DNA of 32,000 bases from Candidatus Saccharimonadota bacterium (GTDB lineage Bacteria; Patescibacteriota; Gracilibacteria; BD1-5; UBA6164), in NCBI GenBank assembly GCA_965229705.1, contig OZ245922.1:120001-152000 (forward strand), written 5' to 3'. Position 1 is the stretch's first letter. Each line of letters opens with the position of its first letter. Made by a program: the position numbers and the translations under genes. Under the pieces are notes generated by a model. It saw only the letters and a program-made list of their open reading frames with translations, did no database searches and was not told the DNA's origin. Of this stretch, positions 945 through 32,000 are shown piece after piece.

Positions 945-1724
945 ATGGATAAAAAACTATTAACGGAGATGTTTGATAACCTTCTCCATATTGGAAACAA
1001 AACAAATTACTGGAACCCTCATATGAATGAGTTTATTTATAGTTCGAGTAATGGTGTTCATATCATAGATCTGACAAAAACAGTAACGCAGATAGAGGCA
1101 GTGAAATCTGCTCTTGAGGGGTTTCATCAAGAAGGGAAAAAGATTCTCTTTGTTGCAACAAAACTTCAAGCGCGAGACGCTTTTTCTAAACTCGCTATAG
1201 AGACAGGAAACTTTTATGTTACAGAAAAATGGGTTCCTGGTTTGCTGACAAACTTTAAAACGATTAAGAGAAGAATATCTACCTATCTCAAACTTCTTCG
1301 CGATAGTGAGGGATCAGGATTTGATATGCTAACAAAAAAAGAAAAGGCCGCAAAAATGCTCGAACTGGAAAAGCTCGATAAGGCATTTGCAGGTCTCAAA
1401 CTTATGAAGAAAACACCTGATGTTTTATTTGTTGTTGATGGAGTATTTGAGTCTCAAGCAGTAAAAGAAGCTCAAAGTTTAGGTATTCCTTGTTTTGCTA
1501 TATCAAATACTAACGGGAGTCCATTTACGGTTGCAGAACTCATACCTGCAAATACCAATTCTGTGAAATCTCTTGATTATCTTGCAGGGGCTCTCAAATC
1601 AGCATTCTCAGCTCCAGTAAAGAAATCGTCTTCTGTAAAAGCAACGGAGAGTAAAAAACCTGCCGTAAAAAAAGCAGCGGAAAATACAGAAAAAGTAGTA
1701 GAAGAGAAAAAAGAAGAAAAATAA
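945..1724 (+). CDS. rpsB: 30S ribosomal protein S2
   Basis: Uninterrupted 259-aa ORF. The N-terminus (LLHIGNKTNYWNPHM...NGVHIIDLTKT) and the PDVLFVVD/IPCFAISNTN motifs are typical of S2. It sits in the conserved rpsB-tsf neighbourhood. Confidence 0.95.
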   Translation: MDKKLLTEMFDNLLHIGNKTNYWNPHMNEFIYSSSNGVHIIDLTKTVTQIEAVKSALEGFHQEGKKILFVATKLQARDAFSKLAIETGNFYVTEKWVPGLLTNFKTIKRRISTYLKLLRDSEGSGFDMLTKKEKAAKMLELEKLDKAFAGLKLMKKTPDVLFVVDGVFESQAVKEAQSLGIPCFAISNTNGSPFTVAELIPANTNSVKSLDYLAGALKSAFSAPVKKSSSVKATESKKPAVKKAAENTEKVVEEKKEEK

Positions 1725-3066: not shown

Positions 3067-3932
3067 GGTTGTTTACACTTTTGGATAATCTGTACAGCAG
3101 AATATTTTAGAAGTTAAACATAAAGGAAATGAATATACATAAACGAACAAGGCTCACTGAAATGCAAAGAAAAGATATATGGGAGAAATATAAAAATGGT
3201 ACAAGGGTGAGTAGCCTCTCAGAAATATATCTCACTTCCCGAGTCACGATATACAAAGTACTTTCTCGAGCTCGCAGACAAGAATTTAGACCAAGAAATT
3301 CTACAAATCATAAATACAGAACTCTTGAATGGTGACTCAAAAGATTGTGAAAGATAGAAAGAAAGATAGTTGAGAAGAAAAATAGAGAGGCTCAGAGATA
3401 CAATAAAACATATCCTGGAGAAATGCTTCATGTAGATACTAAAAGACTTCCTCCAATAGTTTGAGATGTAGATAAAACACCAGAATACTTATTTGTAGGA
3501 GTAGATGACTATAGCAGAGAGGCATATGTATCAATACACAAAGATAAGAGTCAGTATTCTTCATCTATGTTTCTCAAACAAATACTTGATGAATGCCCCT
3601 ATGTGATTGAGAAGGTATATTCAGATAACGGAAAAGAATACAAATGAAGTAGTGAACATGAATTTGTGAAAGTTTGCGAAGAGCATGGAATTACTCAGGG
3701 ATTCACACGAGTAAAAAGACCACAAACAAATGGTAAAGCTGAGAGATTTATACGAACTGTAATGGAGATGTGGCATAAAAAATACCAATTTACTACCCGT
3801 AAAGAAAGGAGAATATCTTTAAAAAGATTTGTAAATTGGTATAATACGGTTAAGCCTCATAAAGGTATTGAAAACATGACACCTTATGAACTTATTGAAC
3901 AATTTTATTATCCTGAAAAAGTGTAAATAACG
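3067..3932 (+). mobile_element. IS481-family insertion sequence (about 0.87 kb)
   Basis: Imperfect 16-bp terminal inverted repeats: GGTTGTTTACACTTTT (3067-3082) and AAAAGTGTAAATAACG (3917-3932), 14/16 complementary. They enclose a single DDE transposase gene whose stop codon lies inside the right IR. The flanking hexamers CTCTAG (3061-3066) and CTCTAA (3933-3938) look like a 6-bp target duplication of the CTAG-containing kind reported for IS481. Confidence 0.75.
3129..3926 (+). CDS. IS481-family DDE transposase (rve integrase core)
   Basis: One 265-aa frame when the four in-frame TGAs (3333-3335, 3348-3350, 3462-3464, 3645-3647) are read as Gly. It has an N-terminal HTH and DDE-region motifs HVDTKRL, GVDDYSREAY, SDNGKEY and RPQTNGKAERFIRT. 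Confidence 0.88.
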
Positions 3933-3997: not shown

Positions 3998-4072
3998 AGG
4001 CCCATAGTTCAACGGTCAGAATACAGGTCTCCAAAACCTGTGATCTAGGTTCGATTCCTAGTGGGCCTGCCA
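3998..4072 (+). tRNA. trnW: tRNA-Trp (anticodon CCA)
   Basis: 75-nt cloverleaf folded by hand: acceptor AGGCCCA/TGGGCCT, anticodon stem CAGGT/ACCTG with loop CTCCAAA, T arm CTAGG-TTCGATT-CCTAG, discriminator G, encoded CCA end. Confidence 0.93.
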
Positions 4073-4314: not shown

Positions 4315-4388
4315 TGGAGGCACCGCCCGGAGTCGAACCGGGCTACAGGGCTTTGCAGGCCCCTGCATAACCGCTCTGCCACGGCGCC
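4315..4388 (-). tRNA. trnC: tRNA-Cys (anticodon GCA)
   Basis: The reverse complement folds as a 74-nt cloverleaf: acceptor GGCGCCG/CGGTGCC, anticodon loop CTGCAAA, T arm CCCGG-TTCGACT-CCGGG, discriminator U73 (a Cys identity element), encoded CCA. Confidence 0.93.
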
Positions 4389-5423: not shown

Positions 5424-5714
5424 ATGACCAACGCGCAACACGAGCTCCAAAAAAAAGCAGTCAAGCTCACAAAAATTCCTTCCAATGACCCAAAAATCAT
5501 TTCTGATATCGAGAATACCCTGGCATACATTGATATGCTCCAAGAAGTGAATACTGATGGCGTGATTCCAACTATTTCTGTTGCGCCATGATCAGCAATT
5601 CTTAGAGAAGATACAGAGGAAATAGCAAGAAACCCACAACCAAAAGAACTTCTCAACTGTAGTGAGCAGCATACGGTCTGAGGAAATATTGTTCTCCCAA
5701 ATATTATGAAATAA
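5424..5714 (+). CDS. gatC: Asp/Glu-tRNA(Asn/Gln) amidotransferase subunit C
   Basis: 96-aa frame with two TGA=Gly codons. The length and the motifs (LAYIDMLQEVNTDGV.P, LREDTEE, GGNIVLPNIM) fit GatC. The standard-code track shows only an antisense ORF here. Confidence 0.85.
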
Positions 5715-6879: not shown

Positions 6880-8277
6880 ATGAATATATACATTCGCATA
6901 CTTCTCATAGTGGGTTGTGTTTTCTCGTTTTGTACTACTCACGCTAGTGGTGTACTGGATCACTTTGAGGTGATTCTTGGAAAAGAAAAAGCAAGCATTG
7001 GCCAGGCTCTTGATATCACTATTTCTGCTGTTGATAGAAATGGGGAAGTGGTGACGGATTATACCGGGGATGTTCTGATATTCTCAGAAAGTGATGCTGA
7101 GGCAGAGTTTCCAAATGATCTTTCTGAAAACTCTTATAGTTTTACGCTTGCAAATGAGTGAAGCGTAAAGTTTGAAAATGCGGTCAAGTTTCAAAATCCA
7201 TGAAAACAGGATATATTTGTCTACGATCTCAATGATGATAGTGTTCTCTGAGTTGCTGAAATAGATATAGTGCAAGAAGAGATAGCTCAAAACATAGAGG
7301 TATTGATACTTTCTCCAGAAGTTGGAGTAACTCATAGCAAAAATAGCATTGTTGTTTCGGGGAGTTCTACAAAAAACCACCAAATCACGCTTATACTCAA
7401 TACGACAGAAGAATTTTTTACTACCACTGATACTCAAGGAATGTTTGAGTTGCAGCTTGATAATCTGAAAGACGGAGTGAATAGTGTTCAGGCGATGATT
7501 CTTGATGCTGATAACGAAGTGATTGGTGAGTCAGAGGTTGTAGAGTTTAAAGTAAATGCTACTAAACCAGAACTCAAAAGCATCATTCTTTCTCCAAACG
7601 GAGAGATAGAAGCTGAGTCAGAGATATCTCTGCAAGTGGTTTCAAATGCGTGACTTATGAGTGTACAGGTACTCATAGACGATGTTATTTCTTCTCTGAG
7701 AGAAGAGAAAGATGGTATTTATATCTGAACAGCGAGAGCTCCTGCAGGTGAATGAACATATCCTATTGATGTTATGCTGAAAAATGAATTTGCTCTTGAG
7801 ACAGTCGTGAGAGAGGCTACTTCTATAGATGTTGTTCCTCTTCCTGAGCTTCTTGCTCCGAGTCCAGAAGAGGAAGAAGAAGAGGTTGAGCAGGAAGAGG
7901 TGGTTGAAGAAGCTCCAACTCCTGATCTGACTATAAGAAATATTGATGTGGTAGAACTCAAGACCAAGTCCGTGATAACTTGGGATGCTTTGGAGGATGC
8001 GGTGTCATATAATATCTACAAGAAATCTGATGATGATATTCACTTAATAGATACGGTGACAGAGGCGAAGTATGAGATTGAGATTACGGGTGACGAAATA
8101 GTCTATGAACATTTTGCGATTAAGGCAGTTGGAAAAGATGAGGTTTCTGGAGAAGAGTTATATGGGGATATTTCTGAGATGACAAAGGTAAAAACTGGTC
8201 CAGAGATGTATGTGTTTCTTGCGATTATCGCACTTCTCCTTGCAGCTGGAGTTGGGTTTATGAGGAAGAATGCATAA
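6880..8277 (+). CDS. cell-surface protein with Ig-like/FN3-like repeats and a C-terminal membrane anchor
   Basis: Three listed ORFs (6880, 7270, 7774) are in one frame joined only by TGA codons, giving 465 aa. It has a signal peptide (MNIYIRILLIVGCVFSFCTTHA), beta-rich repeats and an acidic linker (PEEEEEEVEQEEVVEE). An FN3-like segment (LKTKSVITWDALEDAVSYNIY) is followed by the C-terminus KTGPEMYVFLAIIALLLAAGVGFMRKNA. Confidence 0.75.
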
Positions 8278-8293
8278 GTAAAGAAATAAAAAA

Positions 8294-8319
8294 ACTCTCA
8301 AAATCTTGAGAGTTTTTTT
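8294..8319. terminator. bidirectional rho-independent terminator between convergent genes
   Basis: Hairpin ACTCTCAA-AATC-TTGAGAGT flanked by an A run upstream and a T run downstream. Confidence 0.7.
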
Positions 8320-8350
8320 ATTCTGCTCTTTAATCTTCCTATTTTAGTCA

Positions 8351-9139
8351 TTATATACCCCTCAAACCTTCTCCCACAAAACATCAGCCATTTTTCTTGA
8401 TAACCTCAAGAAATAGATCATATAAATCTCTACTCAGTGGCTTAGAGAGTTCTTTGAGACGATTGTAGCTCATATTATATTTGTATTTTCCCAGCTCTCG
8501 AAAAAGATCATAATCAAAAACGGTGTTGTACTTCTTGATAGCTTTTATCAGTAAAAGAGTGTTTGGTCACTCATAACTCTCGCTGATTAGAGCTGATTCG
8601 AGAAGCGCCATTTCAAGAGCTGAGATTTTTAGCTCTATTCACTCAATACAGACCTGCTTCACATAGGATGAAAATTTACTGTAGAGATTGATTTTCTTCC
8701 CCTCATCTTTTCCTGAAACAGTTTTAAAGATGATTTCATATTTCCCCACCTGTATTCGCTTTGAAAGTTGGCGATTCACGATAAAAATCTTTTCTGGAAT
8801 ACCCAGGTCTTTCAAATGAAATTCAAGAGATTTTTGTCCAGAAATATAGTAGTGACTTCATACCTCTTTGACGATATAGCGTTTGAGAAGCTTCAAAAAA
8901 TACTTCTCTATCAGATCAATACTATTGAGAGATACATCGCAGGGTTCAGGGACGATATACACTCCAGCTTTAAGAGAAATAATACTTCCTTCTGACTTAA
9001 GTCTATAAATGAGCTTGTTACAGCGTTGAGTATTTTGTTTTTTACACTCTGGATCTATGATCTCAAAAATATCGTTTTTTAATAGTACTTTTCATCATTT
9101 CTTTGACAATATTTCCACAATTTTGTTAAAAGCTAGCAT
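8351..9139 (-). CDS. hypothetical protein, possibly an AbiEi-like wHTH protein
   Basis: 262-aa frame (ATG 9139, TAA 8351-8353) open only with TGA=Gly. The N-terminal region resembles a winged helix and the central ALEMALLESAL segment is reminiscent of AbiEi-type antitoxins. The functional call is weak and no partner toxin gene is adjacent. Confidence 0.55.
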
Positions 9140-29797: not shown

Positions 29798-30427
29798 ATG
29801 CTTACAGAAAAACAGCAACATGCCCTAGATGTTATCACAGATTTTGTAGCTCGATATGGGAAATCTCCTACGATTGAAGAGCTCAAAAATCTCCTCCATC
29901 AAAAATCGAAGCGTTGAGTAACACAGTATTTGGAAGTACTTGAAAAAAAGGGATTTATCTCTCGAGGAGAATGATATAGAGGCATTCATCTGGGGAACAC
30001 TATAGGAATGCAGACAACACTCAATATTCCTATTCTCGGATACGCAAACGCCGGTACGCCACTAGCAGTTGCTGAGAGTAATGACTATGGAACACTCCCT
30101 ATCTCAAAAAATATTATCGGAGAAAATTCAGGAGAATACTTTGTACTACGAGTTTCATGAACAAGTATGAATGAGTGTGAAGTATCAGGGAAAAAGCTCG
30201 AAAATGGGAGTTATGTTTTGATTAAGAAAGATGAACGAGTACTCAATGAGAGAGATCCTTTTTTGTTTATCGTAAACGGATGAGCGACTCTCAAGCGTTA
30301 TAAGAAAAATGCATGACAAGTGTACCTTCTTCCACAGTCAAATGAAGACCATCATACTCCTATTATCCTCTCAGAATCTGATGAAGTATATCCAAGTGGA
30401 AAGGTTGTAGATGTGTTTCACTTTTAG
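29798..30427 (+). CDS. lexA: LexA repressor (S24 self-cleaving peptidase)
   Basis: 209 aa. The N-terminal wHTH reads LTEKQQHALDVI...PTIEELKNLL...GVTQYLEVLEKKGFI. The cleavage-region/peptidase motifs are LRVSGTSMNE (Gly is TGA) and VNGGATLKRY. Confidence 0.9.
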
Positions 30428-30467
30428 GGAAAAAGAAAAAACTTTGATTTTTGGCTAAAAACGATAT

Positions 30468-30690
30468 AGTGAAGCCTACGAAAGGCGTTTGAGTCTCGCT
30501 GACACGGGACGAGCTAGAGGAAGAACCCCCTCTCTATACATAGTGATTACTAGGGATAGTAGAACCTCTCGGAGTCGAAATACTTCGTCAAAAAAATACA
30601 ATTGAGTATCGTTTTTGGTGGCACCTTCATACCGTGTAATATTCTCGGATGACCAAAAGCACATGAATATTTTTCGTGTGTTTTTTATAT
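30468..30690 (+). promoter_or_regulatory. T-box riboswitch-like leader of aspS (with its terminator)
   Basis: A promoter-like TTGATT...TATAGT lies at 30444-30470. A Stem I distal-like motif, ATAGTGATTACTAGGGATAGTAGAACC (30540-30566), closely resembles the remembered glyQ T-box AUAGUGAAAGCUAGAGGAUAGUAACC. A T-box-like TGGTGGCACC (30616-30625) carries UGGC, which could pair with a GCCA 3' end. An 8-bp terminator hairpin plus T6 lies at 30660-30686, and TTCAT(ACC)GTG (30626-30636) can alternatively pair with its 5' arm. It sits immediately upstream of an aminoacyl-tRNA synthetase gene. Confidence 0.6.
30660..30686 (+). terminator. intrinsic terminator (expression platform of the aspS leader)
   Basis: CACATGAA-TATTT-TTCGTGTG (8 bp including one G-U) followed by TTTTTT, 24 nt before the aspS ATG. 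Confidence 0.65.
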
Positions 30691-30709
30691 ATAGAGTAAC
30701 ACTATTTTT

Positions 30710-32000
30710 ATGCATAGAAGTCATAACTGTAATCAACTTACAGCAAAAAATATTTGAGAGCAAGTCATGCTTGCTTGATGGGTGAGTAACCGTCGAGATC
30801 ATGGAGGAATTATTTTTATAGATCTCAGAGATCGTTATGGTCTGACACAAGTGGTGTTTGACCCAGAAGATGATACGGCGTCTTGGGAACTCGCAGACAG
30901 TTTGAGATCAGAATATGTGATCAAGATTCAAGGAACAGTGAGGTCTCGACCAGACGGTCAGAATAACCCAAATATGTTTACGGGAGAAATAGAAGTCATT
31001 GTTTCACAGATAGAGCTTTTATCAAAATCAAAAACTCCTCCTTTTGAACTAGATGAACATGCTACCGAGGCAAAAGAAGATCTCAGACTCAAATATCGCT
31101 ATCTTGACATGAGAAGAAAGAAAATACACGACTTTATTGCCTTTCGTTCAGAGATGACGCACTATACACGAAACTGGTTTATACAGCGAGGCTTTTATGA
31201 TGTACAGACCCCTATTCTTGCAAACTCTTCTCCTGAGTGAGCGAGAGATTTTCTGGTACCGAGTCGGTTGAATCCGGGAACATTTTATGCGCTTCCTCAA
31301 GCACCTCAACAATTTAAGCAACTTCTTATGGTGTGAGGAATAGATAAATATTTTCAGATTGCTCCATGTTTTCGAGATGAAGACCCGCGAGCTGATAGAC
31401 ATGCCGGAGATTTTTATCAAGTGGATTGTGAAATGAGTTTTGTAGAACAGTCAGATATATTTGATGTGGTAGAGTCGTATATTCTCGATATAACACAAGA
31501 ACTCTCATCTCAAGAGATTCTTTCTGAAACTCCGTGAAAAGATACTCTCAGAGAAGGAGGAAAATTTTTTCTCCTTACTCATGAAGCAGCAATTGAAAAA
31601 TATGGTTCAGATAAACCAGATCTCCGCTATGGTATGGAACTCATGGATGTAGATGATATATTTGCTCGTAGTTCCAATGAGATATTCTCATCAATTGCTA
31701 CTGATAAGAAGAAAAATAGGATTAAAGCATTGAAAGTCTCAGGATGAGACACGGTATTTTCCAAAACACAGATGAAATGATTTGAGAGTTATGTGCGTCA
31801 GTTTGGAGCTCAATGACTTGGATATTTTCAGATGAAGGAGGATGGGCTGAAAGGACCACTTAATAAGTTTTTTGAAGAAAAAGATCTCAAAGAAATTGTT
31901 GAGAGAACAGAGCTTGAATTAGGAGATGTGATATTTTTTGGAGCAGGGGAAAGAGAACTTGTATGTCATTATATGGGAAAATTTCGAATATATCTTGCGG
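30710..32000 (+). CDS. aspS: aspartyl-tRNA synthetase (3' end outside the window)
   Basis: [52 protein letters not shown] aligns residue by residue with the E. coli AspRS N-terminus. Class II motifs are [19 protein letters not shown] and [14 protein letters not shown] falls at conserved Gly (30776-30778 in GWV, 31238-31240 in PEGARDF). Confidence 0.95.

Follow-up and report, generated by a model that had tools for sequence, protein, structure and literature searches.

The 283-nt intergenic leader that runs from the end of a LexA-like gene (30427) to the aspS ATG (30710, + strand) is, with a probability of roughly 80%, a T-box-type transcription attenuator (~30484-30686) that senses tRNA and whose architecture has been described for neither known class. 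All positions refer to the window, the whole stretch of 32,000 nucleotides that was analysed. Across relatives the leader has a conserved, covarying secondary structure and a conserved codon pattern; it is complementary to tRNA-Asp, and it can adopt mutually exclusive folds. We read it as a T-box variant in which a class-II-like decoding module is joined to a transcription terminator. The original prediction, which took a 280-nt region upstream of aspS for a T-box leader in a member of the Candidate Phyla Radiation (CPR), thus holds for the leader, for its host (Gracilibacteria), and for the T-box-type build and switch, but not for the canonical class, as there is neither a long Stem I nor a match to RF00230.

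The downstream gene, aspS (30710..32000, + strand, running past the window end), encodes a bacterial-type AspRS with a GAD domain and contains eight in-frame TGA codons read as Gly, TGA being a sense codon in this CPR host. The best PDB match of the AspRS is the non-discriminating AspRS (ND-AspRS) of P. aeruginosa (4WJ3, 381 bits), compared to 341 bits for the E. coli enzyme. The gatC gene is present at 5424-5714, as had been claimed, and neither an AsnRS nor any other class IIb paralogue was found within the 415 kb examined, a span that is uninformative at the genome level. A putative promoter (TTTGAT ... TATAGT, 30443..30470, + strand) was recognized by eye in the upstream sequences, and relatives appear by eye to carry CTTGCAT...TATA(C/A)AAT at an equal distance 5' of the leader. 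A consensus promoter/terminator scan did not call this block and missed the terminator described below; its sole call was a probably spurious promoter within the leader.

The leader family and its proposed decoding module

The comparison is based on 37 orthologous aspS loci with the leader, which together with the window make 38 copies and 27 distinct Gracilibacteria leaders. Leaders from metagenomes were collected by a pattern fixing TAGA, GAGT, GGTGGCA and CTT, and these blocks therefore provide independent evidence through their invariance only among the 11 leaders derived from genomes, ten of which were found via the protein, 5' of aspS, and one (L015) via the model. All share a layout that begins with a K-turn, a Stem I of 4-6 bp with a codon in its apical loop and a Stem II with a GAA/AGUAGA S-turn, after which come a stacked hairpin, a purine-rich linker without structure, an antiterminator and a terminator. 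The leader lies 5' of aspS in every case with downstream sequence, with an extra whole ORF between terminator and aspS in several loci, and it is also present in the human oral Gracilibacterium HOT-871 (CP017714.1), with GAC, and in HK-STAS-PATE-10 (CP060226.1), with AAC, but not in CP042461.1. Within the sequence examined the family occurs on aspS only, and the codon rule accordingly covers Asp and Asn.

When the 27 leaders are aligned to a covariance model (R1), 93.5% of the cells that should pair do so, compared to 79.9% in shuffles, none of which reach 93.5% (0/500). Eighteen pairs have changed on both sides, with a covariation score of 0.455 vs 0.189, and sliding the partners in this alignment lowers the pairing to 53% or less. 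A plain MAFFT alignment still gives 89% paired cells, with agreeing counts in register, and RNAalifold independently finds the C-helix, Stem I, lower Stem II, the IIA hairpin and A2. The comparison of aspS leaders that had been proposed thus yields a covarying structure with a conserved codon site, although that site is not the predicted one (AAU, 30579-81). Single-sequence minimum free energy folding, with z = -1.7 for the whole leader and +0.24 for 30466-30592, is uninformative for the 5' half. R1 scores all 38 leader copies at 89-157 bits (window 101.5 bits, E ~4e-27), while its best match among 50 Campylobacterota aspS loci has only E = 0.02. A relaxed pattern found three matches on viral contigs, none supported by the model. 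Second copies 5' of other genes were also sought; the sole marginal match (L102, 20 bits) was rejected, as it corresponds to a tRNA-Cys gene read in reverse complement.

The leader begins with a predicted K-turn. Its bulged strand (30484..30492, + strand) consists of the C-helix 5' strand GGC (30484-86), the loop G-UUU (30487-90) and G-A (30491-92), and its non-bulged strand (30511..30515, + strand) of G-A (30511-12) and the C-helix 3' strand GCU (30513-15). The GC/GC pairs of the C-helix are invariant (27/27 leaders) with an outer A-U or G.U pair, and all 27 leaders have UUGA, UAGA, CUGA or UCGA plus G-A; the non-bulged dinucleotide is GA, AA or UA, of which the second A is invariant. A bulge of 3-4 nt and covarying flanking helices are consistent with the notion that a K-turn of the GA motif sits at the base of Stem I. 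Stem I itself (30493..30510, + strand) is a short helix, GUCUCG/CGGGAC, with the apical loop CUGACA (30499-30504). Both partners of all four modelled pairs vary within the family (GUAG/CUAC, GCAG/CUGC, GUGG/CCAC, GCGG/CCGC, GCAA/UUGC, GUCUUG/CAAGAC), and 95% of its cells are paired, which 0/2000 shuffles equal.

The loop of Stem I follows the pattern NN-[A/G]AC-A in 27/27 leaders, with its other bases varying freely. In the window it presents the specifier GAC (Asp) with a conserved 3' purine A (30501..30504, + strand), a site that had been set aside as non-canonical but that forms part of the apical loop in a hairpin that is conserved and covaries. GAC is found in 12 of the 27 leaders, the window included, and AAC (Asn) in the other 15; the third base is C throughout, and the next base is A in 26 leaders and G in one. 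T-box specifiers characteristically have C at the third codon position and a conserved purine next (PMC7583486); the leader likewise presents a codon of the amino acid of the regulated gene in Stem I, with C in third position and then a purine. The proposal of an Asn specifier on aspS fails for the window, which reads GAC, and survives in altered form for the relatives with AAC at the same loop position. GAC and AAC have been exchanged at least five times on the AspRS tree, and the sole change seen is that between Asp and Asn, a single transition between close relatives. The tRNAs for Asp and Asn are the two charged by a non-discriminating AspRS, and the sole codon change joins them. The tRNA-Asp encoded on contig L096 has a GUC anticodon complementary to GAC 30501-03; this was the one tRNA-Asp gene in 48 loci, in which no tRNA-Asn gene was found.

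Stem II (30516..30569, + strand) has a lower helix AGAGG/CCUCU (30516-20 / 30565-69) that is 94-95% paired, with four of its five pairs changed on both sides. It is followed by an S-turn, with AAGAA (30521-25) opposite UAGUAGAA (30557-64, + strand), in which GAA (30523-25) faces A-G-U-A-G-A (30558-63) as in the five-purine string of class II (G37-A38-A39; A69-G70-A71; PMC7583486). The bulged-G position is variable (G/U/C), as is tolerated in N. farcinica (PMC7583486), and the spacing to the codon equals that in class II. TAGA, fixed in the metagenome set by the search pattern, is invariant in the 11 genome-derived leaders too. The apex of Stem II (30526-56, + strand) varies from 11 to 86 nt in the family. 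Directly abutting Stem II is a Stem IIA-like hairpin (30570..30587, + strand; CGGAG/CUUCG, loop UCGAAAUA), which is 99% paired and in which the second pair is G-C in 16, A-U in 10 and G.U in one of 27 leaders. Its loop varies in sequence and length among the 26 relatives (UCAAAU, UUUCAAAC, UUCCAUAU and others). An F-box-like UCGUCA (30585-90) follows, YGUYA being found in ~15/27 leaders. Anchored covariation of the IIA loop vs the tail found no IIB pseudoknot pairing, and a plain hairpin can largely stand in for the Stem IIA/B pseudoknot (PMC7583486).

Linker, antiterminator and terminator

In place of Stem III the leader has an A-rich unstructured linker (30588..30610, + strand) with the conserved motif AAUUGAGUA (30600-08; AAUYRAGWA in the family). 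Stem III and its 5'-RRRxG ... AA-3' flanks, which have been called indispensable for tRNA 3'-end binding (PMC7583486), were not found, the linker being without a stable hairpin in 22/26 leaders; RNAalifold likewise predicts no helix in it. A mini Stem III (AUAC/GUAU, -0.9 kcal/mol) was considered and rejected, as it is confined to the window and not conserved.

The leader also contains GGUGGCACC, and its antiterminator occupies 30611..30660 (+ strand). The antiterminator helices A1 (30611-18 / 30653-60) and A2 (30627-34 / 30646-52) flank an unpaired 7-nt bulge, UGGCACC (30619-25, + strand; UGGC 30619-22), and the antiterminator alone folds at -13.1 kcal/mol with this bulge unpaired. A2 is 99% paired, with four of five pairs changed on both sides, and A1 is 85-91% paired. 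The bulge reads UGGCACC in 25 of the 26 segmented leaders, conforming to the UGGN-ACC of T-boxes, and its UGGC is complementary to the G73-CCA end of the tRNA-Asp on contig L096; both the anticodon and G73 of this tRNA therefore fit the leader, as the original prediction had proposed to check. A terminal G.U wobble pair in A2 (the steric sensor) is absent: 26/26 leaders read ACC-U-U...A-CC, giving an invariant terminal U-A pair and one extra unpaired U.

An intrinsic terminator (30655..30686, + strand) follows, with a 13-bp stem (30655-67 / 30673-85), a UAUUU loop and a U6 tract. It folds at -13.9 kcal/mol (z = -5.8; matched by 0/200 shuffles). The A1 3' strand doubles as its 5' strand (AAAAGC...), rendering the two folds mutually exclusive in the window. 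The combination of a T-box-like UGGC with alternative terminator and antiterminator folds, as first proposed, is thus borne out by the unpaired bulge, the overlapping strands and the computed energies. In 26/26 leaders analysed, a U-tailed hairpin (U5-U8) begins 2 nt inside the A1 3' strand. The terminator ends at least 24 nt before the ATG and covers no ribosome-binding site; the output element is thus a U-tailed terminator and not the Shine-Dalgarno sequestration of class II.

Proposed mechanism and its alternatives

In the mechanism that we propose from these features, the leader would bind tRNA, form tertiary contacts and sense the charging state, with readthrough into aspS as the outcome. 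The GUC anticodon of uncharged tRNA-Asp would pair with GAC (30501-03) in the apical loop of Stem I, and the K-turn at the base of Stem I would introduce a bend that lets the S-turn purines of Stem II (GAA 30523-25; AGA 30561-63) clamp the codon-anticodon duplex, with the hairpin 30570-87 stacking beneath Stem II. The free 3' end of the tRNA (G73-C-C-A) would pair with UGGC (30619-22) and thereby stabilise the weak A1, so that the antiterminator is held and polymerase reads into aspS. With tRNA charged or absent, the A1 3' strand would instead join the terminator (30655-85 and the U-tract), and transcription would end 24 nt short of the ATG. Where sister lineages have AAC, aspS would respond to tRNA-Asn instead, which would imply that AspRS also serves Asn-tRNA synthesis. 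Many Gracilibacteria would then control aspS via tRNA-Asn, an arrangement that is sensible only with an AspRS that charges tRNA-Asn as well. On the other side stand the missing Rfam match, the lack of Stem III and its flanks, the U-A in place of G.U, the IIB pairing that was not found, and the restriction to aspS, all of which speak against a T-box reading; transcriptional T-boxes are, furthermore, said to require a long, elbow-binding Stem I (PMC7583486).

The original prediction was of a canonical class I T-box in which AAU (Asn, 30579-81) is the specifier, carried by the 3' strand of a long Stem I, and was favored by the presence of gatC and by local similarity between GGAUAGUAGAA...CUUCG and glyQ Stem I in its 3' strand. 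The comparative data led to rejection of the alignment to glyQ Stem I, and the supposed Stem I distal motif comes apart: AGAGGAAGAA (30516-25) is the lower helix of Stem II with the S-turn, CAUAGUGAUUA falls inside an insertion that is specific to the lineage and sits at the apex of Stem II, the "distal loop" being missing from most relatives, and GGAUAGUAGAA forms the S-turn's 3' strand. The AAU is situated in the loop of the covarying hairpin 30570-87, a loop that is unconserved in sequence and length in the 26 relatives, its third-position U breaks the C rule, and a long Stem I would find no 5' partner strand. RF00230 has no match at the gathering threshold in the window, at E<=10 in 30250-30800, or in six related loci. 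The original prediction had itself named a missing RF00230 match as grounds for its own refutation. Nor does any Rfam family at E<=10 give a T-box or other credible match in the leader or the six related loci. On these comparative data the class I reading with AAU appears in effect already refuted, and we accord it next to no chance.

A further alternative is a conserved structured RNA with no tRNA sensing, such as an attenuator to which AspRS itself or some other protein binds, the terminator then being under the control of that protein. Protein autoregulation through tRNA mimicry is exemplified by E. coli thrS. The lack of an Rfam match, of Stem III and of the G.U sensor, and the restriction of the leader to one gene, are consistent with such a reading, and the K-turn is also a protein-binding motif (PMC7583486). 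However, the loop shows the codons GAC and AAC, whereas a mimic bound by AspRS would need the anticodons GUC and GUU, and the sole tolerated codon change is from Asp to Asn. The 7-nt bulge UGGCACC is moreover the acceptor-end site of T-boxes, complementary to G73-CCA, and the S-turn is spaced as for clamping a duplex of codon and anticodon; we therefore regard a protein-bound leader as improbable. Slightly less probable still is a T-box-like sensor acting on translation, through a sequestrator in the style of class II, or on RNA stability. This would fit with the decoding module being of a type known only from the translational ileS T-boxes of Actinobacteria, and with the view that transcriptional T-boxes need an elbow-binding long Stem I (PMC7583486). 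It is at odds with the stable hairpin and U5-U8 tract in all 26 leaders analysed, the end of which lies at least 24 nt 5' of the ATG and off any ribosome-binding site, and with the several loci that have a whole ORF between terminator and aspS.

Significance and comparison with known systems

T-boxes are usually ascribed to Firmicutes and Actinobacteria, and to a few other phyla besides. The literature searched held no report of a T-box in any CPR lineage, Gracilibacteria and Patescibacteria included, and nothing relevant on Gracilibacteria and AsnRS. If the T-box reading is true, this would be the first T-box found for the CPR within that literature, widening the known range of T-boxes to a CPR lineage that includes the oral HOT-871. 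Detection rests on RF00230 and on a class II model that has been run only on Actinobacteria; both miss this leader family, indicating that divergent T-boxes are hidden from them. The current view is that a long Stem I serves fast tRNA capture in transcriptional T-boxes (PMC7583486), and co-transcriptional tRNA sensing would, if the reading is true, need neither an elbow-binding platform nor Stem III. A minimal module joined to a terminator without Stem III makes the family a natural test case for a minimal tRNA-sensing RNA. Repeated GAC/AAC switching would offer a clean example of specifier evolution and, again if true, the flips would document, in nature, how lineages have re-wired which of the two ND-AspRS substrates governs its expression. 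We lean towards the combined view of a third T-box class, with a minimal module, no Stem III or G.U pair, a terminator, and specifier flips that record ND-AspRS rewiring. Control of aspS by tRNA-Asn would also point indirectly to tRNA-dependent synthesis of asparagine in Gracilibacteria.

The decoding half most resembles the ileS class II T-boxes of Actinobacteria (TBDB; N. farcinica; M. tuberculosis, 6UFM and 6UFG). Both have a short Stem I with an apical-loop specifier and a purine next to it, a K-turn at the stem base, no elbow-binding platform, and a Stem II loop-E S-turn (G-A-A opposite G-U-A-G-A) at equal codon spacing. In both, a helix is stacked right under Stem II and followed by an F-box-like YGUYA, with a UGGN-ACC bulge between A1 and A2 further on. 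The leader differs from class II in having an intrinsic terminator as its output where class II has Shine-Dalgarno sequestration, in its purine-rich single-stranded linker in place of Stem III and the RRRxG...AA flanks, in closing A2 by U-A and not G.U, and in that IIB pseudoknot pairing was not detected. Its setting is also different: the leader is found on aspS with Asp and Asn codons in Gracilibacteria, class II on ileS with AUC in Actinobacteria.

The output half, in contrast, resembles that of canonical transcriptional T-boxes (RF00230; B. subtilis tyrS and glyQS), with which the leader shares the antiterminator/terminator choice, the GGUGGNACC core, a terminator 5' strand that is the antiterminator 3' strand, a K-turn, and a location 5' of an aminoacyl-tRNA synthetase gene. 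Unlike these, it lacks the long Stem I, its internal-loop specifier and the platform of AG bulge and distal loop, its Stem I being 4-6 bp with an apical loop and no partner strand; it also lacks Stem III and the G.U sensor pair, and is negative for RF00230 at E<=10. As cited in PMC4206432, an Asn-specific T-box governs an ND-AspRS/GatCAB system in Clostridium acetobutylicum (Saad et al. 2012, PMC3370219), and a two-codon T-box has been described (Saad et al. 2013, PMC3732954). As far as that citing account describes the C. acetobutylicum system, the present family is similar in that AspRS expression would be tied to tRNA-Asn charging, with AAC in 15 of 27 leaders. It differs from that canonical class I system in the window, where GAC takes the place of an Asn codon, and in the flips between Asp and Asn specifiers that separate close relatives.

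Gene setting and genetic code

The window has a G+C content of 34%. Its stop-to-stop open reading frames (ORFs) of at least 100 aa total 4.7k aa under table 11 versus 21k aa under table 25/4, a ~4.5-fold higher ORF content, and the in-frame TGAs of aspS coincide with conserved glycines of AspRS, such as NIGEQVMLAGWV. TGA is thus read as a sense codon, and the code is genetic code 25, that of the Gracilibacteria/Absconditabacteria; for this window, table 11 yields misleading lists of ORFs. The closest AspRS relatives all come from 21 Gracilibacteria/'Peribacteria' genomes (65-82% identity), and the source was therefore rightly assigned to the CPR.

The aspS gene starts with the ATG at 30710 (not 30711), runs past the window end at 32000, and encodes a bacterial-type AspRS with a GAD domain. 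A LexA-like repressor gene (29798-30427; LexA DNA-binding domain and Peptidase S24) lies directly 5' of the aspS leader, which is housed in the 283-nt spacer between its end (30427) and aspS. L017, one of the comparison loci, likewise has the C-terminus of a LexA-like protein in front of aspS. GatC is encoded at 5424-5714, as originally noted. The window further contains genes for tRNA-Trp(CCA) (3998-4072, +) and tRNA-Cys(GCA) (4315-4388, -), and a tRNA-Cys is also found near aspS in L017, L082 and L102. Adjoining the tRNA genes, an ORF at 3111-3926 (~271 aa in code 25, start MNIHKRTRLTEMQRKDIWEKYKNG) resembles a transposase or helix-turn-helix protein. The sole sigma-70-like site returned by a scan (30575-30602, TCGAAA-16-TACAAT) falls within the leader and probably arose by chance in A/T-rich DNA, because fewer sites were found than shuffles predict.

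Architecture of the leader

The original prediction had made a match to RF00230, the Rfam T-box model, decisive for the idea of a T-box. None was found: Rfam 15 returned two tRNAs only for the window, no T-box at E<=10 in 30250-30800, and no T-box in six related loci with the same leader. By that standard the idea would be refuted; the sequence says otherwise, and the anatomy was therefore tested directly. Positions 30608-30664 form a two-helix fold that leaves UGGCACC(U) unpaired (-13.1 kcal/mol), and 30650-30692 form a U6-tailed hairpin of 13 bp (-13.9 kcal/mol, z = -5.8, with 0/200 shuffles as good). AAAAGC is both the 5' strand of the terminator hairpin and the 3' strand of the outer antiterminator helix, so the two folds are mutually exclusive. 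T-box antiterminators are defined as helix A1, a 7-nt bulge UGGN-ACC and helix A2, in competition with a terminator (PMC7583486), and this is the layout of the 3' half of the leader (A1, bulge and A2 at 30611-60; terminator at 30655-86). Folding thus bears out the proposed UGGC-containing T-box sequence and its alternative terminator and antiterminator.

The 5' half opens with a K-turn, whose C-helix pairs GGC with GCU (30484-86/30513-15) and whose core consists of a G-UUU bulge and G-A (30491-92) opposite G-A (30511-12); relatives have GA, AA or UA as the 3' dinucleotide, with an invariant last A. Stem I (30493-98/30505-10) has only 4-6 bp and a 6-7-nt apical loop (30499-504). Stem II comprises a lower helix (30516-20/30565-69), an internal loop of AAGAA opposite UAGUAGAA, and an apex whose length ranges from 11 to 86 nt. 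Directly abutting it is the 5-bp IIA hairpin (30570-74/30583-87), followed by UCGUCA and an A-rich linker of 22-29 nt with the motif AAUYRAGWA at 30600-08. Variable helix tips tolerate insertions of up to ~85 nt, and the L104 leader (957-1173, minus strand) has expansions of short ATTACGAA-like repeats within A2 and the Stem II apex.

The comparative data mark the leader as a real feature. By registered counts, pairing amounts to 95-99% in Stem I, lower Stem II, the IIA hairpin and A2, a level that 0/2000 column shuffles reach, and to 85% in A1. With 20 leaders aligned by plain MAFFT, 89% of cells are paired versus 79.5% in shuffles (0/500), 17 pairs have changed on both sides, and slid partners are at most 50% paired. 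A model-based alignment of 27 leaders, which is biased towards its covariance model, R1, gives 93.5% pairing, 18 doubly changed pairs (141 cells with a double change), covariation of 0.455 versus 0.189 (0/500), and slid partners at no more than 53%. RNAalifold independently arrives at the same C-helix, Stem I, lower Stem II, IIA and A2. Every leader scores 89-157 bits with R1 (101.5 bits for 30481-30660 of the window).

Several assignments of the original prediction have to be abandoned. The proposed AAU specifier (30579-81) sits in the loop of the IIA hairpin, and almost all relatives have a loop of different sequence and length there. The 'AG-bulge-like' AGAGGAAGAA corresponds to the lower helix of Stem II with the S-turn, and the 'distal loop' CAUAGUGAUUA is part of an insertion in the apex that the window shares only with its closest relatives. 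GGAUAGUAGAA, likened to glyQ Stem I, is the 3' strand of the S-turn; the specifier loops of class I T-boxes likewise contain S-turns, the probable cause of the resemblance.

Specifier, distribution and the question of asparagine

The leader lies immediately 5' of aspS in 9/21 genome loci. A degenerate pattern made from invariant blocks recovered 27 metagenome contigs with 18 distinct leaders, followed by aspS genes 53-83% identical to that of the window. This pattern fixed TAGA, GAGT, GGTGGCA and CTT, and for the metagenome leaders the invariance of these blocks does not count as independent evidence; it put no constraint on any part of the Stem I region or on any 5' partner strand. In Ca. Gracilibacteria HOT-871 (L015, a complete genome), R1 also located a leader 1 kb 5' of aspS, bringing the total to 37 loci and 27 distinct sequences, including that of the window.

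The apical loop of Stem I reads NN-[A/G]AC-A(N) in 27/27 leaders. Twelve of them, among them the window (30501-03) and HOT-871, have GAC as the triplet and the other 15 have AAC, so that the sole tolerated variation replaces an Asp by an Asn codon; the loop bases beside the triplet are free to vary (CU, UU, CA, AG, AA, CC, AU). T-box specifiers have C as third codon base and a purine next (PMC7583486), and in all 27 leaders the third base is C and a purine follows (A in 26, G in 1). The GAC-leader locus L096 also encodes a tRNA-Asp whose anticodon loop, CU-GUC-AC, and 3' end, ...UAGCACC-G-CCA, are complementary to GAC and UGGC, respectively. The structure, the pattern of codons, the complementarity to tRNA and the mutual exclusion of the two folds are thus observed; that the leader binds tRNA and senses its charging state is inferred.

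GAC and AAC leaders are interleaved on a neighbour-joining AspRS tree: the window (GAC) adjoins L100 (AAC), L001 adjoins L004, L090 (GAC) is nested in an AAC clade and, across the entire stem-loop, is separated from L005 by that base only, and there are three further GAC clades. This interleaving implies at least five switches of codon and several losses of the leader. No leader was seen by eye or with R1 in the aspS upstream regions of L007, L010-L014 and L016-L020 (AspRS 65-78% identical to the window's), yet it is present in more distant relatives (53%), a distribution that points to repeated loss. The best AspRS matches outside Gracilibacteria are all from Campylobacterota (L022-L080, 54-58% identity), which include species known for non-discriminating (ND) AspRS; R1 gave nothing credible on 50 Campylobacterota aspS loci. 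A lateral origin of aspS is possible.

Between the terminator and aspS, L015 (~2119-2973), L081 and L094 contain a 284-aa ORF with GIY-YIG and DUF4357 domains, which would consequently be transcribed only on readthrough. In L096 the leader is followed by a GNAT acetyltransferase and a DUF5655 protein, and in L104 by an NYN-domain protein. Such genes could be mobile, or hitch-hikers placed under the control of tRNA. In L101 (~7502-8960), the aspS 3' of an intact leader is broken over three frames (95, 320 and 267 aa), either a pseudogene or an assembly error.

The proposal of a T-box with Asn sensing thus holds in part: the leader is T-box-like, in CPR, and Asn sensing fits the AAC relatives, but the specifier of the window is GAC, in the apical loop, and the element is not canonical. 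The AAC codons imply that the AspRS enzymes of those lineages would serve tRNA-Asn. An Asn-specific T-box on ND-AspRS/GatCAB is described for C. acetobutylicum (Saad 2012, as cited in PMC4206432). That the window's own AspRS serves tRNA-Asn is weakly suggested by the presence of gatC and by its best solved relative, the non-discriminating P. aeruginosa enzyme (381 bits versus 341 for E. coli). The loci scanned contained no tRNA-Asn gene, and the 415 kb of locus sequence searched contained no AsnRS. Speculatively, a GAC specifier might tolerate tRNA-Asn through a first-position G.U pair.

Comparison with known T-box classes

An older census placed T-boxes in Firmicutes, Actinobacteria, Chloroflexi, Deinococcus-Thermus and two Proteobacteria; TBDB gathers class I T-boxes via RF00230 and ran the class II model on Actinobacteria only. 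Full-text searches for T-boxes with CPR, Gracilibacteria or Patescibacteria returned no report, with incomplete coverage, such that an earlier description is possible.

Short Stem I T-boxes, known as translational switches of Actinobacteria, place the specifier in the apical loop and rely on a K-turn, a Stem II S-turn and a IIA/B pseudoknot, while transcriptional T-boxes 'generally require' a long Stem I with an elbow-binding platform (PMC7583486). The S-turn of N. farcinica ileS consists of G37-A38-A39 with G67 and A69-G70-A71 (PMC7583486). Numbered from one base 5' of the C-helix, the codon of a typical leader falls at 16-18, the purine after it at 19 and the G-A-A at 37-39, the same as in N. 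farcinica. The 3' strand of its S-turn is G-U-A-G-A, and variation of the first G (G/U/C) fits the mild G67U phenotype reported for N. farcinica ileS. These correspondences make the decoding module class-II-like. The IIB pairing was looked for in the leaders and not found; a plain hairpin restores most of the pseudoknot function (PMC7583486). Unlike translational class II, the output is an intrinsic terminator, and unlike both described classes the leader is without Stem III (no stable hairpin in the linker of 22/26 leaders) and RRRxG...AA flanks. Its A2 is closed by an invariant U-A and an extra U, whereas the described classes use a G.U steric sensor. Given these differences, the leader falls outside class I and class II as defined; it appears to work in a T-box-like manner and is best called a new variant.
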